Assembly (NCBI GenBank): GCA_964617525.1
Contig: CAZTWG010000010.1
Location: forward strand, 1-12,259
Direction of reading: 5' to 3'
DNA: 12,259 nt
From: an uncultured Gammaproteobacteria bacterium
Lineage (GTDB): Bacteria > Patescibacteriota > Patescibacteriia > UBA2591 > UBA6264
In this document: in pieces, positions 4,310 through 12,259 of the stretch
Position numbering within the stretch: position 1 is the first letter of the stretch
Layout of the letters: the number at the start of each line of letters is the position of its first letter
Translations under genes and position numbers: made by a program
The notes under the pieces: generated by a model
Told to the model about the DNA's origin: nothing
The model's input: the letters and a program-made list of their open reading frames with translations, nothing else
Database searches by the model: none

Positions 4310-4882
4310 ATGGAAAAAACAATAAAAAATTTAACAAAAGCATTTATTGGCGAAAGCCAAGCAAGAAACCGTTATACAATGTATGCTAAAATTGCCAAGA
4401 AAGAAGGTTATGAAGAAATATCAGCTAATTTTGCGTTAACAGCTGACCAAGAAACAGAGCATGCCAAATGGTTAATGAGAATGATTAATCAATTAAAGAA
4501 TGACAATTCAGAGTATGACGAAATTATTGTTGAGGCAGGCGCCCCAACAATATTGAAAGATACGAAAGCAAATTTAAAAGCAGCAATTGCAGGAGAAAAT
4601 TATGAACATACAATTATGTATCCGGAGTTTGCCAACACAGCAGAAGAAGAAGGTTTCTCAGATATTGCGAATAGACTAAGGGCTATTGCTAAAGCAGAAG
4701 TTAATCACGAAGATAGATACAAGAGATTTCTAGAAGCATTAGAAAGTAGTTCAGTGTTTGAAAAGGAAGAAGAAGTGATTTGGGTTTGTCGAAAATGTGG
4801 ATATATTCACAAGGGAAGGCAAGCTCCTGGTAAATGTCCTTCTTGTGGGCATCCTCAGGCATATTTTGAAGTTAAAAAATAA
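4310..4882 (+). CDS. rbr: Rubrerythrin (ferritin-like diiron domain plus C-terminal rubredoxin-like domain)
   Basis: AFIGESQARNRYTMYAKIAKKEGY, ETEHAKW, GENYEHT and AEVNHEDRY (E/ExxH diiron ligands). C-terminal CRKCGYIH..x..CPSCGHP (CxxC-x12-CxxC). Confidence 0.93.
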   Translation: MEKTIKNLTKAFIGESQARNRYTMYAKIAKKEGYEEISANFALTADQETEHAKWLMRMINQLKNDNSEYDEIIVEAGAPTILKDTKANLKAAIAGENYEHTIMYPEFANTAEEEGFSDIANRLRAIAKAEVNHEDRYKRFLEALESSSVFEKEEEVIWVCRKCGYIHKGRQAPGKCPSCGHPQAYFEVKK

Positions 4883-6652: not shown

Positions 6653-6734
6653 TGATAAATATAGTCTAAAGAAAATACAGGTTAAATCCTTAGAAATAAA
6701 AAGTGAAATAATTTATGGATAACTTATAGATAAC

Positions 6735-6766
6735 AAAAAACCACCGTTTGAGGTGGTTTTTTGTTT
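6735..6766. terminator. Bidirectional intrinsic terminator between convergent genes
   Basis: AAAAAACCACC-GTTTGA-GGTGGTTTTTTGTTTT: a GC stem CCACC/GGTGG with an A-run on one side and a T-run on the other. It lies 16 nt beyond the csp stop and about 85 nt beyond the 6652 stop. Confidence 0.8.
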
Positions 6767-6781
6767 TATTTGAAAGTGTAA

Positions 6782-6979
6782 TTAAGCTTTTTTGACTTGT
6801 GTTGCGGCTGGTCCTTTTGGGCTATCATTAACCTCAAAAGTTACCTCATCACCTTCTCTTAATTCACTGAAGTCGACATCCACTAATTCACTAGCGTGAA
6901 AGAATAAATCTTTTTCGCTACCTTCTTGTGTGATAAAACCGAAGTTTTTATCAGTCAACTTTTTAATAGTTCCTTGCAT
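6782..6979 (-). CDS. csp: Cold-shock domain protein (CspA family)
   Basis: MQGTIKKLTDKNFGFITQEGSEKDLFFHASEL..GDEVTFEV..SPKGPAATQV: RNP1-like (K)NFGFI and RNP2-like DLFFH motifs, 65 aa. Confidence 0.9.
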   Translation of the reverse strand: MQGTIKKLTDKNFGFITQEGSEKDLFFHASELVDVDFSELREGDEVTFEVNDSPKGPAATQVKKA

Positions 6980-10093: not shown

Positions 10094-11002
10094 ATGAGTA
10101 TTTTTGAGAATAATATTTGCAAAAAATCAGAGGATAGCAGTAGAAAGGAACAGCAAGAATCTGGCTCCTTGCAATCATTCATTGATGTTGTTAGAAAAGA
10201 AACAGCGGAAGTTTTGAGATTATTTAAAACAAAGTTTTTAAGCAAGAATGAAGGAATGATTTCTATAACCTCTGATGCTTTAGAGAAAAAAATATTTGAT
10301 ATAGTTGACGTAATTCGTAATGTTAAAATTAAGTCATTGGCAAAAAATAAAGATTCTCAAAAAGAAAATTCTTTACAAATAATTCTTTCCATATCCCGCC
10401 ACGATACAATAAACAAATTAGTATCTTTAATTTCTGCTATCCATCTTTTAAAAGAACATGATAATGAAGGTAACAAAGCTATCTCTGAAGAGGTTCAAAC
10501 AAATATTGCTGGGATAGAAAAAATACTTGAAAAAACAGAAGAAACAGCGCATACCATAATATCTGGAGAATCGCTTATACATAATGTGCGACAGGTGGCA
10601 GAAGACATAAAAGAAACCTATGATAACTTAAAGGTTAAAATAAATTATGATTGTCATGATAAGTGCTTAATCAAAACTAATGGTTCTTTGTATTCAGTTT
10701 TTGATAATATTTTAGCTAATGCTATCCGACACGGTCATGCGACAGAAGCTGAGATAAATATCATAGAAAAAAATAATAAAGATCTTTTAATAAAGATTAA
10801 AAATAATGGGGAAAAACTCAAAAGGGGAAGCGAAGAAAAGATATTCGAGAAAGGCTTTAAATCTAAAGAAACGGGGAACACAGGATTAGGACTTGCATTA
10901 ATAAGGGACGACATTGAAATAAGCCATGGAGAAATTAACGCCGAAAATACAAAAGATGGTGTAGAGTTTATTATTAAGTTTCCATTACTACAGAGTAAAT
11001 AA
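10094..11002 (+). CDS. Cytoplasmic histidine kinase lacking a recognisable sensor or TM domain
   Basis: H-box SISRHDTINKL (His103, nt 10400-10402). N-box LYSVFDNILANAIRHG. G1 IKNNGEKL. F-box IFEKGF. G2 GNTGLGLALI. No hydrophobic helices. It starts 13 nt after the S66 gene stop. No response regulator in the window. Confidence 0.8.
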   Translation: MSIFENNICKKSEDSSRKEQQESGSLQSFIDVVRKETAEVLRLFKTKFLSKNEGMISITSDALEKKIFDIVDVIRNVKIKSLAKNKDSQKENSLQIILSISRHDTINKLVSLISAIHLLKEHDNEGNKAISEEVQTNIAGIEKILEKTEETAHTIISGESLIHNVRQVAEDIKETYDNLKVKINYDCHDKCLIKTNGSLYSVFDNILANAIRHGHATEAEINIIEKNNKDLLIKIKNNGEKLKRGSEEKIFEKGFKSKETGNTGLGLALIRDDIEISHGEINAENTKDGVEFIIKFPLLQSK

Positions 11003-11023
11003 ACTTTCAAGAATTTGACAAAG

Positions 11024-11050
11024 TTGAGGAACTAGTTTTCTCAATTTTTT
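11024..11050 (+). terminator. Intrinsic terminator after the kinase gene
   Basis: TTGAGGAA (11024-11031) / TTTTCTCAA (11037-11044): 8 bp with one G-U pair, loop CTAGT, then TTTTTT. Confidence 0.6.
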
Positions 11051-11068
11051 AATTGTGGATAACTCTTC

Positions 11069-11097
11069 TTGACCAAAAATAGTTATGGGTATATAAT
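11069..11097 (+). promoter_or_regulatory. Near-consensus sigma-70 promoter of the DUF5320 operon
   Basis: TTGACC (11069-11074), 17-nt spacer, TATAAT (11092-11097). The predicted TSS near 11104 gives a leader of about 115 nt. Confidence 0.7.
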
Positions 11098-11116
11098 CAT
11101 AATTAATACACCTAAA

Positions 11117-11165
11117 CTTATTATGTTGTAGAGTCTTAATCCCAAGATTCTACAAGCATAATGAG
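11117..11165 (+). promoter_or_regulatory. Long imperfect hairpin or inverted repeat in the operon leader
   Basis: CTTATTATGTTGTAGAGTCTT (11117-11137) pairs with AAGATTCTACAAGCATAATGAG (11144-11165): 21 bp, 2 G-U pairs, one bulged G (11156), loop AATCCC. No U-tract follows. Confidence 0.55.
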
Positions 11166-11220
11166 CGGGCTATTGTAATTAAGTCGATACATTTTTAATT
11201 AACCTTTAACTAATAAATAT

Positions 11221-11451
11221 ATGCCAAGATATGATGGAACAGGTCCTACGGGAATGGGTGCCGGTACAGGCTGGGGCAGAGGCCCTTGTGGTGCTGGTCG
11301 TGGATCTTGTAGGGGATTTGGTGGCAGATTCGGTTTCCGCCGATTTTGGACCAAGTCAGAAGAAAAAGAATCTTTACAAGAAGAGAAAGAAATGTTGGAG
11401 AATGAAATGAAAGCAATCAAAGAGCGCTTGGACGAATTAAAAGAGAAATAG
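11221..11451 (+). CDS. DUF5320 family protein (Gly/Arg-rich N-terminus plus C-terminal coiled coil)
   Basis: MPRYDGTGPTGMGAGTGWGRGPCGAGRG..GFGGRFGFRR matches the DUF5320 hallmark MPRgDGTGP.G.GP.TGrG.G.C.G. The C-terminus is SLQEEKEMLENEMKAIKERLDELKEK. Confidence 0.8.
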   Translation: MPRYDGTGPTGMGAGTGWGRGPCGAGRGSCRGFGGRFGFRRFWTKSEEKESLQEEKEMLENEMKAIKERLDELKEK

Positions 11452-11460
11452 GAAAGATAT

Positions 11461-11501
11461 AAATATTGCTCTATTCATCCATTGATATAGAGCAATATTT
11501 T
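11461..11501 (+). terminator. Perfect 14-bp inverted repeat between cistrons (partial terminator or attenuator candidate)
   Basis: AAATATTGCTCTAT (11461-11474) / ATAGAGCAATATTT (11487-11500), 12-nt loop, with the 3' arm running into TTTTAT. The stem is A/T-rich, so it is weak. Confidence 0.45.
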
Positions 11502-11569
11502 ATCTAGACGGAATTAATAAATAAAAAATAATTTAAGAAATAGAAAGGTCATATTAAGCAAATAAACTA

Positions 11570-11776
11570 ATGTTAAATTTTATGTTTAATAGCCAAAGAT
11601 TAGGTTCTGGGATGGGTAGAGGAGGTGGTCGAGGTCGTCAGAATAAAGGGTTTAGATTAGGTCCCGGCGGGGAATGTCTATGTCCAAAGTGTGGGGCAAG
11701 GGCTCCTCACCAGACAGGAATCCCTTGTTACGAGCAAAAGTGTTCTAAATGTGGCAGTCTTATGACTAGGCCATAG
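11570..11776 (+). CDS. Small Gly/Arg-rich protein with a 6-Cys metal-binding ribbon
   Basis: [17 protein letters not shown], then [36 protein letters not shown] (CxCxxC...Cx5CxxC). The start is uncertain (ATG at 11570, 11582 or 11612). I recall similar ..CxCPKCG..xPH..G.PC....CPkCG..M.R proteins in NifX/MinD-like neighbourhoods. Confidence 0.6.
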
Positions 11777-11798
11777 TAATTTCTAAATTATAAATAAA

Positions 11799-12185
11799 AT
11801 GAAAATTTGTATTTCATCAATCGGGAAAAATCTTTCTTCTAGTGTTGATCCAAGGTTTGGAAGATGTCCCTATTTTCTAATTGTGGATTCTGAGAAAGCG
11901 AAAAAGTTTAAAGTTATTGAAAATACAGGAACCCAGGCTCAGCATGGGGCTGGTGTTACAGCTGCTCAAATTATAGCTAACCAAAAGATAGATATTGCTA
12001 TTTCTGGGAATTTTGGGCCGAATGCTTATATCGTTCTATCTCAGGCAAGGATTAAGTGTTATACCGTTTCTGGTTCTATTTCTGTAAAAGAAGCGTTGCA
12101 ACTTTTAGACCAAGGAAAGCTTCAACAAATAATAAAAGCTTCTTCAGGACACCCCGATAATGGTTTTGTCGCAGAAAAAAAATAA
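11799..12185 (+). CDS. NifX/NifB-like protein (dinitrogenase iron-molybdenum cofactor biosynthesis domain, PF02579-type)
   Basis: MKICISSIGKNLSSSVDPRFGRCPYFLIVDSE...VIENTG...GAGVTAAQIIANQKIDIAISGNFGPNAYIVLSQARIKCY...SVKEALQLLDQGKL matches the family pattern (..hFGrapyFlivD.., GaG..aa..L...gvd.vi....GP.A...L..aGI.vy). Confidence 0.85.
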   Translation: MKICISSIGKNLSSSVDPRFGRCPYFLIVDSEKAKKFKVIENTGTQAQHGAGVTAAQIIANQKIDIAISGNFGPNAYIVLSQARIKCYTVSGSISVKEALQLLDQGKLQQIIKASSGHPDNGFVAEKK

Positions 12186-12206
12186 TGTAGTAAATGTAAA
12201 AACCTA

Positions 12207-12259
12207 ATGAAAAAGGGGAAAATCCGAAAAATTGCTATCAGCGGGGGGAAGGGAGGGAC
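12207..12259 (+). CDS. Start of a MinD/Mrp/ParA-type P-loop ATPase, 3' end outside the window
   Basis: MKKGKIRKIAISGGKGGT.. is the beginning of a deviant Walker A (GKGGxGK[ST]). Only 17 codons are visible. Confidence 0.55.
   Translation, partial: MKKGKIRKIAISGGKGG

Follow-up and report, generated by a model that had tools for sequence, protein, structure and literature searches.

An operon of seven genes in a Patescibacteriota genome, related to the orange-protein complex and IssA: a candidate self-repressed iron or iron-sulfur module with a putative DUF134 operator

The DNA analyzed here (the window, a stretch of 12,259 nucleotides, positions 1-12259 of contig C10) belongs to a 597-kb genome of the Patescibacteriota that consists of 77 contigs and is estimated to be 95% complete. 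Near its end begins an operon that encodes a NifX-fold protein, two MinD-type ATPases with inserted ferredoxin domains, two small Gly- and Arg-rich proteins, a cation diffusion facilitator (CDF) and a DUF134 protein. The closest described systems are the orange protein (ORP) complex and IssA. The ORP complex of Desulfovibrio vulgaris and O. alaskensis comprises Orp3, Orp4, Orp5, Orp8 and Orp9, the last being the Mrp-NifX protein MrpORP (Fievet 2011; PMC6345978). In D. vulgaris purification yields an Fe-S-containing complex of Orp8, the orange protein, with Orp3 and Orp4; the latter two are MinD-like proteins, each with two [4Fe-4S] motifs, that MrpORP can load with clusters in vitro (PMC6345978). 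The complex is specific to anaerobes and has no settled role, and a connection with cell division is put forward only as a hypothesis (PMC6345978, PMC8359166). IssA, from Pyrococcus furiosus, consists of a NifX fold and a cationic tail rich in Gly, aromatic residues and Arg that binds thioferrate; Vaccaro et al. placed the protein MTH1175 in the IssA clade and used it as a model for IssA (PMC5524996).

The locus appears from its sequence to be a variant of a known but unsolved system, related to both the ORP complex and IssA. As in the ORP complex, a NifX-fold homolog of the orange protein is accompanied by a pair of MinD-type ATPase paralogs that both carry a 2x[4Fe-4S] ferredoxin insert of the Orp3/Orp4 type; in both cases the hosts are anaerobes and the function is unsolved. 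The differences are also clear. No counterpart of the Mrp-NifX carrier MrpORP (Orp9) was found in this genome: the NCBIfam model, whose cut-off is 450 bits, scored only 24 and 52.6 bits, and a genome-wide CbiA search returned only the two MinD-ferredoxin genes, ParA/Soj and one weak match. While the Desulfovibrio genes form divergent operons that involve sigma-54, OrpR and IHF, the genes described here form a single co-oriented operon with a sigma-70-type promoter and a putative DUF134 operator, to which DUF5320, a six-cysteine (6-Cys) protein, a CDF exporter and DUF134 itself have been added.

The NifX-fold protein is the sole copy of PF02579 in the genome, and its best solved relatives are MTH1175 (1eo1, E = 7e-23), TM1290 (1rdu) and the orange protein of Desulfovibrio gigas (2wfb, E = 5.6e-14, residues 2-107). 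It shares with IssA the PF02579/IPR003731 fold, its best solved relative being the very template used to model IssA, and cationic disordered segments rich in Gly, Arg and aromatic residues are present in this system as well. However, the protein found here ends in ...SSGHPDNGFVAEKK and lacks the cationic Gly/aromatic/Arg tail of IssA, the cationic segments being located on the separate DUF5320 and 6-Cys proteins; NifX-like proteins with Gly/Arg tails are encoded at the sister loci L050 and L054. IssA forms thioferrate-protein nanoparticles, and it has no known linkage to MinD-ferredoxin ATPases, CDF or DUF134.

With moderate confidence we propose that the operon represses itself and serves to sense iron or iron-sulfur species, to hold them or pass them on, and to export them, the ligand being inferred. 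An earlier interpretation made without database searches (the sequence-only reading) had described this gene combination as having no assigned function. This is too strong because the locus is kin to the ORP complex and IssA: the NifX-fold protein and the pair of MinD-ferredoxin ATPases are the core of the partly characterized ORP complex (PMC6345978), and the NifX-fold protein is related to MTH1175 and IssA.

Gene content of the operon and its recurrence in anaerobes

The order of the genes in the operon is DUF5320, 6-Cys, NifX-fold, MinD-ferredoxin A, MinD-ferredoxin B, CDF with a 6-Cys tail, and DUF134. The features of the window that belong to its promoter and coding sequences are:

11069-11097 (+): sigma-70-type promoter, TTGACC-17-TATAAT, matching the consensus at 11 of 12 positions
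11083-11102: 20-bp palindrome TTATGGGTATATAATCATAA overlapping the -10 box, the proposed DUF134 operator
11221-11451 (+): DUF5320 gene, 76 aa; full-length PF17253 match (1-73), 38.5 bits versus a cut-off of 27
11582-11776 (+): gene for the 6-Cys mini-protein, 64 aa, with no Pfam family above cut-off
11799-12185 (+): gene for the NifX-fold protein (PF02579), 128 aa, 74.8 bits versus a cut-off of 26.3, with no Gly/Arg tail
12207-12259 (+): 5' end of the gene for MinD-type ATPase A, starting with MKKGKIRKIAISGGKGG (ATG at 12207-12209) and running out of the window

The remainder of the operon lies outside the window. Past position 12259 contig C10 continues with a gap of 10 N and then 230 bases of the same ATPase A gene, which reach into the 4Fe-4S ferredoxin insert. 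The sequence MKKGKIRKIAISGGKGG corresponds to residues 1-17 of the 293-aa homolog of ATPase A at the related locus L019; residues 23-98 in the L019 numbering follow the gap on C10 and residues 189-292 are found at the start of contig C53, which opens with the 95 C-terminal residues of a MinD-like ATPase. Only about 90 codons are missing between C10 and C53. Next on C53 are ATPase B (C53:303-1178), a MinD-type protein with CbiA/ParA and two Fer4 motifs, the CDF transporter (PF01545, 155.4 bits; TIGR01297, 220 bits; both above cut-off) and DUF134 (UPF0251, PF02001; 69.8 bits versus a cut-off of 27), which is the last gene of the operon and is followed by genes for a diacylglycerol kinase, ParA/Soj and DUF192. 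The close relatives L019 and L020 have all seven genes on single contigs beside the same LD-carboxypeptidase gene, with the insertion in L019 of thioredoxin and glutamate dehydrogenase genes after DUF5320. A six-frame search of the genome with PF17253 points to the same DUF5320 locus.

Most of what the sequence-only reading had said about this gene content held up. The near-consensus promoter that it placed before four co-oriented genes is the sole site above 9/12 in the region and is conserved at L019, L020, L013 and L021. The DUF5320 and NifX-like assignments, for which it had named hidden Markov model (HMM) searches as the refuting check, scored above the Pfam cut-offs; the ATPase whose beginning it had recognized starts at the ATG at 12207 and is of the ferredoxin-insert type; and the continuation that it anticipated, with ferredoxin-domain MinD paralogs and DUF134, is present on the tail of C10 and on C53. 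Its assumption of a non-nitrogen-fixing context agrees with the lack of any PF00148 match (nitrogenase NifD/K/E/N homologs) in this 95%-complete genome. The Gly/Arg-rich 6-Cys mini-protein belongs to a real family with six invariant cysteines, but its start codon has to be moved: it is most likely at 11582 rather than at 11570, because the two closest relatives have ATA at the latter position and the catalogued protein P0001 is the 64-aa form.

The 6-Cys protein consists of a Gly/Arg-rich head and a knuckle with the pattern C-x-C-P-x-C-x5-H-x5-C-x4-C-P-x-C, that is, it carries two CPxCG knuckles, for which the Pfam zinc-ribbon models remained below cut-off. The six cysteines are invariant in the alignments A3 and A4, and the histidine is invariant in A4 and nearly so in A3. 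A profile search of 1.84 billion representatives found the module in 2062 representative proteins at E <= 1e-3, and the domain was predicted by AlphaFold2 (AF2) with a per-residue confidence score (pLDDT) of about 80-87. Members of the family typically have the head MPxxDGTGP, as in DUF5320, which has been lost in the lineage of the window. The six-cysteine module itself is about 35 residues long, and the entire unit of head, Gly/Arg run and module also constitutes the C-terminal half of the DUF134 protein in many genomes (161 matches at E <= 1e-5). The six cysteines are invariant across 57 aligned members of these fusions, whose hosts are Patescibacteria, DPANN and Methanofastidiosia, and at five loci the gene before DUF134 encodes a 6-Cys protein instead of DUF5320. 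Other fusions join a rhodanese, three 6-Cys modules and a NifX-like domain, or a PDZ domain, three to five 6-Cys modules and one to three NifX-like domains. A deltaproteobacterial 6-Cys protein used as the query returned no protein named Desulfovibrio.

DUF5320 has the MPxxDGTGP head, a segment rich in Gly, Arg and aromatic residues with a conserved GPCG cysteine, and then a coiled coil. An alignment of 40 homologs yielded the shared pattern MPxxDGTGPxGxGPxTGRGxGPCG with one conserved cysteine, and their first 45 residues contain 32% Gly, 12.5% Arg and 9% aromatic residues. Among 401 genomes of the phylum DUF134 is found in 81, DUF5320 in 68 and both in 65. The two genes lie within 3 kb of each other on one strand in 62 of the 65 genomes in which they co-occur, with a distance below 250 nt for 61 of 64 pairs, so DUF5320 and DUF134 are near-obligate neighbors in this phylum. 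The sequence-only reading had left these two small proteins as disordered ones of unassigned role, but both are tied to DUF134 by near-obligate adjacency and gene fusion. The DUF134 protein of this genome has a single cysteine, at a column that is mostly Ala in the aligned homologs, and none is conserved. This makes the two small proteins, tied as they are to a regulator whose DUF134 portion has only a non-conserved cysteine, the obvious candidates for its sensor parts.

One genome per species was scanned with the 6-Cys motif alone, which yielded at least 173 relatives, and 7 kb on each side of the best 80 loci, in named genomes, were searched by tblastn. Within these best 80 loci, a NifX-like protein was a neighbor of the 6-Cys motif at 67 and a MinD-ferredoxin protein at 65, with one or the other at 74; DUF5320 was found at 44, DUF134 at 38, CDF at 26 and Fur at 8. 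This synteny is far beyond chance and bears out the recurrence in anaerobic bacteria and archaea that the sequence-only reading had stated. The hosts are anaerobic lineages; the bacterial ones include Patescibacteria, Deltaproteobacteria/Syntrophorhabdus, Bacillota, Halanaerobiales, Atribacterota and Sphaerochaeta, and the archaeal ones include Pacearchaeota, Woesearchaeota, Nanoarchaeota, Thermoplasmatales, Methanosarcinales and Hadarchaeota. Control searches also located family members in Methanosarcina acetivorans and Thermotoga maritima.

The putative operator and the DUF134 regulator

The palindrome TTATGGGTATATAATCATAA was found by aligning the promoter regions of relatives and occurs only once in the 597-kb genome. 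The core, ATGGGTATATAMTCA, is matched exactly at 13 sites, which are spread over 12 of the 401 genomes of the phylum, with no match for the reversed control, and 8 of the 12 foreign core sites are located within a TTGACA-17 promoter right before a DUF5320 gene that is followed by a DUF134 gene. For a test free of circularity, 80 loci were picked by the DUF134 HMM alone and the generalized motif ATGRRTATATAYYCAT was sought, with up to 2 mismatches, in the 700 nt upstream. The motif was found upstream of DUF134 in 55 of the 80 loci versus 14 of 2000 shuffles. Its positions fall in two groups: at -204 to -550 the motif precedes the DUF5320 gene that lies in between, and at -23 to -39 it is followed at once by DUF134 or a DUF134 fusion. 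Among 80 loci anchored on the 6-Cys motif, the site is present in 27, versus 2 of 400 shuffles. An A-type variant, TTATGAATATATATTCATAA, precedes clusters in Deltaproteobacteria, Pacearchaeota, Woesearchaeota and Methanosarcinales. NifX-like genes were found in 16 of the 401 genomes, and for this reason the operator, DUF5320 and DUF134 can be considered the constant unit in the phylum, of which the operon described here is a rarer extended form.

A member of the DUF134 family was predicted by AF2 with a core pLDDT above 90, and this core superposes on region 4 of an extracytoplasmic function (ECF) sigma factor bound to -35 DNA with a deviation of about 1 A over 50 residues. We found no solved structure of the family. 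The recognition helix, SQSTFQR, holds the two DUF134 columns that are most informative on the type of operator, i.e., whether the half-site is GGG or GAA: the Gln of F-Q-R is present at 34 of 36 GGG-type loci versus 4 of 19 GAA-type loci, and the Ser of Q-S-T at 34 of 36 versus 8 of 19. This covariation between helix and operator is suggestive of direct readout by DUF134, with which it would fit. The palindromic nature of the recognition site implies that DUF134 would act as a dimer, and its location over the -10 box implies repression, in which case the operon would encode its own repressor. No paper on the function of DUF134, UPF0251 or DUF5320 was found in a library with few subscription journals, nothing on the function of COG1149, COG1342 or COG1433 was found in the literature searched, and no published description of the DNA switch of this operon was found.

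A further perfect-core site, TAATGGGTATATACTCATTA, was observed at about position 1527 of locus L036 (G098:C14), some 50 nt before a 397-aa open reading frame that looks glutamate-synthase-like by eye only. This site is distant from the DUF5320-DUF134 pair of that genome, which is on another contig, and may mark a second member of the regulon.

Metal context and weighing of the explanations

Several lines of context point to iron and sulfur. The 70-residue tail of the CDF transporter is homologous to the entire 6-Cys protein (E = 2e-13), whereas the CDF at L013 and L021 carries a fused NifX-like domain instead. The models that match the transporter best are MamM, MntE, MamB and FieF, none of these equivalog models reaching its cut-off. 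At a spirochaete locus Fur precedes DUF5320 and a CoA-disulfide-reductase/rhodanese gene precedes the 6-Cys gene; a sequence resembling a Fur box was noted by eye beside that DUF5320 gene. In Oleidesulfovibrio alaskensis G20 the genes Dde_3197-3199 moved together with feoA and flavodoxin by 6-7 log2 units in a copper-exposure experiment (PMC10533852 Table 2); Dde_3198 is annotated as NifX-type, and the numbers of the three genes are adjacent to that of mrpORP, Dde_3202 (PMC10533852).

All four long 6-Cys proteins with readable contigs (P0155, P0141, P0143 and P0157, at L222-L225) lie within magnetosome-type clusters that carry MamI, LemA/MamQ, two CDFs, MamE/O-like proteases, a MamK-like actin and FeoAB. 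These proteins combine PDZ domains with 2-5 copies of the 6-Cys module, and P0141, P0143 and P0157 also have NifX-like domains. One of the clusters is from Candidatus Riflebacteria, and its protein is a 4-Cys variant without Cys1 and Cys4. This suggests a ribbon built from Cys2, 3, 5 and 6 and a second site made up of Cys1, Cys4 and the His. In FmpB of D. magneticus RS-1 a magnetochrome domain at the N terminus is combined with a NifX domain and a PDZ domain (PMC4287615). The likeness to FmpB/MamP-like proteins and MamB/MamM thus consists in a NifX-like domain with a Cys-rich redox or metal module, beside MamB/M-like CDFs. On the other hand, the N-terminal redox module of FmpB is a magnetochrome domain and not a 6-Cys knuckle, no MamI, MamQ or MamK was seen near the operon described here, and its proteins are small and soluble and lack PDZ domains.

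These observations can be brought together in the following proposal. DUF134, with its sigma-region-4-like core, would bind the 20-bp palindrome as a dimer over the -10 box and repress the operon and with it its own gene. The signal would be read by the 6-Cys knuckle, which is free here and fused to DUF134 elsewhere, and/or by DUF5320 with its one conserved cysteine and its coiled coil. The NifX-fold protein and the two MinD-ferredoxin ATPases would keep anionic iron-sulfur species or pass them on, with the cationic segments of DUF5320 and the 6-Cys protein, rich in Gly, Arg and aromatic residues, acting in trans as the tail does in IssA. The CDF pump would remove surplus metal, its 6-Cys tail serving as a cytoplasmic domain for metal or cluster sensing or for hand-over. 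The proposal is built on gene content, homologies, synteny, operator conservation, gene fusions and protein-DNA covariation, all observed directly, and from these we infer the binding and repression by DUF134, the iron or iron-sulfur ligand, the direction of the response, and storage as opposed to transfer.

Circuits in which a metal-sensing repressor is combined with a sequestering protein and an exporter, such as SmtB/SmtA and CzrA/CzcD, offer a working analogy. The proposed arrangement would resemble them in having a small autoregulated repressor acting on a promoter palindrome, a small Cys-rich protein and a CDF exporter. There is no homology, however: DUF134 is a sigma-region-4-like helix-turn-helix protein and not a member of ArsR/SmtB, and the putative sensing module is here a separate or fused 6-Cys knuckle. 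A second analogy is SigR/RsrA. The DUF134 core superposes on region 4 of sigma-E, SigR and SigC with 0.6-1.0 A over 43-51 residues, at a Foldseek E value that is weak (0.07), and the pairing of DUF134 with a Cys-rich partner may be compared with that of an ECF sigma factor and its zinc-binding anti-sigma factor. DUF134 nevertheless lacks sigma regions 2 and 3 and its proposed site is palindromic.

A number of points weigh against this proposal. Foldseek gave no significant fold match for the 6-Cys domain, the best E value being 0.89 (rubredoxin B, Rpb12 and ribosomal ribbons), and in the AF2 model of a natural DUF134-6-Cys fusion the linker had a pLDDT below 50 and the global score pTM was 0.50, with no confident docking of the two parts. 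The DUF5320-DUF134 pair mostly stands alone in the phylum; it therefore does not need the carriers, and DUF5320 may have a regulatory function only. The statistics of covariation and co-occurrence ignore phylogeny. The metal-site motifs of the CDF, HxxxD in transmembrane segments TM2 and TM5, are compatible with zinc, as HxxxD/HxxxD is no less typical of Zn-type CDFs than of Fe-type ones. Neither Fur nor ZIP (tblastn with seeds from other loci) nor a true FeoB (Pfam) was detected in the genome, its FeoB_N matches being other GTPases such as a 450-aa two-domain frame. Finally, the orange protein was isolated with a Mo-Cu-sulfide cluster and not with Fe-S (PMC6345978), and the cell-shape phenotype of ORP-deficient Desulfovibrio is left unexplained by the model (PMC8359166).

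Four other explanations have to be considered. The operon could be dedicated to maturation, the NifX-fold and MinD-ferredoxin proteins assembling an Fe-S cluster or a complex metallocluster, or inserting it into one or a few client enzymes, with the small proteins as chaperones. NifX, NafY and NifB domains do carry cofactor precursors (PMC5524996) and clusters are transferred from MrpORP to Orp3 and Orp4 in vitro (PMC6345978); Fe-S clients exist in the genome, e.g., the two MinD-ferredoxin ATPases of the operon, and SufB/D was not found there, so extra carriers could be needed. The genome has, however, a row of genes at C56:911-3581 for a NifS-like desulfurase, an IscU/NifU-like scaffold and MnmA, its sole recognizable Fe-S assembly set, and with this set present the idea that the operon is the only Fe-S assembly system was rejected. 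None of the loci read links the cluster to a candidate client, NifX-like genes are found in 4% of the phylum genomes, so that the function is dispensable, and homeostasis, i.e., sensing, holding and exporting, fits better because the operon includes a metal exporter and a dedicated putative repressor. Maturation, and with it the cluster assembly or delivery that the sequence-only reading had thought reasonable, therefore seems unlikely. A spatial or cell-division role of the ORP type, in which the MinD-like ATPases would position cargo at the membrane or the pole and the metal centers would sense redox only, takes its support from the morphology defect of OrpR-deficient D. vulgaris, attributed to lower levels of Orp proteins (PMC8359166), from the polar location of MrpORP and the MinD-like amphipathic helix of Orp3 and Orp4 (PMC6345978), and from the ParA/Soj gene located four genes downstream on C53. 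Yet a division gene linked to the cluster was seen at none of the loci read, the fusion partners of the 6-Cys and NifX modules are transporters, rhodanese and biomineralization proteins, and the cell-division idea is termed a hypothesis by its own authors (PMC8359166); we regard such a role as very unlikely.

The remaining two explanations concern what the cysteines and the Gly/Arg segments bind. If the system handled or detoxified a different metal or metal-sulfide, with Zn, Co, Ni, Cu, Mo or W as candidates, the 6-Cys module would provide a thiolate site for Zn or Cu, the NifX-fold protein would bind a thiometallate as the orange protein does, and the CDF would be the exporter. The cluster carried by the orange protein, [S2MoS2CuS2MoS2] (PMC6345978), the HxxxD/HxxxD motifs of the CDF and the response of Dde_3197-3199 under copper exposure (PMC10533852) agree with this, and the structural neighbors of the 6-Cys domain, although non-significant, are zinc ribbons. 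Against it, the contexts (Fur, FeoAB and magnetosome clusters) indicate iron, the best model matches of the CDF are Fe/Mn types, the G20 genes co-vary with feoA and flavodoxin (PMC10533852), and six invariant cysteines exceed the needs of a structural Zn ribbon, so that we consider another metal quite unlikely. It has also to be asked whether the heads of DUF5320 and the 6-Cys protein are of the RGG type and make them co-repressors or nucleoid or RNA binders rather than binders of metal or Fe-S. A DUF134 protein and a DUF5320 protein of Methanosarcina mazei are among four with a G-quadruplex-binding RG motif in a survey (PMC7565180), and DUF5320 is almost always beside a DNA-binding protein. 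But the cysteines are invariant, the fusion partners of the module include CDF, NifX-like and rhodanese domains without any nucleic-acid function, and Gly/Arg tails are also found on NifX-fold proteins, as in IssA, all of which makes a role limited to nucleic acids highly improbable.

Other features of the window and significance of the locus

The noncoding features around the promoter and the first genes are:

11024-11050 (+): terminator-like hairpin with a T-run, at the close of the upstream histidine-kinase-like gene and between this gene and the promoter of the operon
11107-11176 (+): 70-nt leader insertion, with an inverted repeat with 12-bp arms at 11126-11155, TTGTAGAGTCTT-N6-AAGATTCTACAA
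11455-11505 (+): hairpin just past the DUF5320 stop codon, with perfect 14-bp arms, -22.3 kcal/mol, z = -6.2

The hairpin at 11024-11050 has too few G-C pairs to be called by a consensus terminator scan; at the same spot L019 and L020 have stronger stems of different sequence, also followed by a T-run. The leader insertion is missing in L019 and L020, is specific to this lineage and has no second copy in the genome. Its inverted repeat was tried as an operator and rejected, as it is part of this private insertion, which neither of the two closest relatives has, and occurs only once in the genome. Relatives preserve the stem of the hairpin at 11455-11505 by compensatory substitution (GCTCTAT/ATAGAGC to GCCCTAT/ATAGGGC), and the two genes inserted in L019 follow this hairpin. 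It is likely a partial terminator or an mRNA stabilizer that sets DUF5320 apart from the downstream genes, and because this very stable hairpin is conserved in relatives, DUF5320 is probably expressed in excess over them. No riboswitch or known RNA was found in 11000-12259 by Rfam at E <= 1.

Some further elements were noted. A perfect DnaA-box 9-mer, TGTGGATAA (the reverse complement of TTATCCACA), is located at 11054-11062, just 5' of the -35 box, and is kept in L019 and L020; the genome has 22 copies versus about 8 expected from base composition by a rough estimate. The leaders of these operons contain an AAAGGTCRTA element 30-45 nt 5' of start codons (11540-11581 here, and L013 and L021), and a genome-wide count of AAAGGTCR shows no enrichment. 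The upstream gene (10094-11002) encodes a histidine-kinase-type ATPase domain only, with no HisKA and no other sensor or membrane domain by Pfam, and it keeps its place by the operon in L019 but not in L020. Elsewhere the window codes for the primary sigma factor RpoD (3-1109), a tRNA (1167-1239) and a rubrerythrin with a rubredoxin-like domain (4310-4882), an iron protein of peroxide defense that fits an anaerobe. In a 110-nt intergenic region, 6694-6803, weak Rfam matches overlap on both strands (rimP leader, rnk leader, IS128 and RefA9), and this pile-up suggests a strong symmetric hairpin.

A broader reading of the findings is possible but doubtful. It holds jointly that DUF134 and its MPxxDGTGP partners would be an undescribed class of iron or iron-sulfur switch, with one operator family used in Bacteria, over the -10 box, and in Archaea, over a TATA-like core, and that the 6-Cys, NifX, CDF and Gly/Arg set would be a widespread toolkit for intracellular iron sulfide. 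Such a toolkit, dealing with thioferrate- or greigite-like material, would be common to magnetosome clusters and to non-magnetotactic anaerobes, including the candidate phyla radiation (CPR) and DPANN, and the orange-protein complex would be its Desulfovibrio version.

The NifX-fold and MinD-ferredoxin genes are among the most widely conserved anaerobe-specific sets that lack a known function, and the orange protein complex has been studied since 2011. To this problem the operon adds three handles: a 20-bp candidate operator, a candidate repressor, DUF134, and a six-cysteine module of 35 residues. If the ligand is iron or an iron-sulfur species, DUF134 would represent a new family of metal-sensing regulators common to Bacteria and Archaea. 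The operon would then explain how iron is controlled in ultra-small symbionts that have no Fur, ferritin-type stores or SUF, and it would connect iron-sulfur storage of the IssA type with magnetosome biomineralization.

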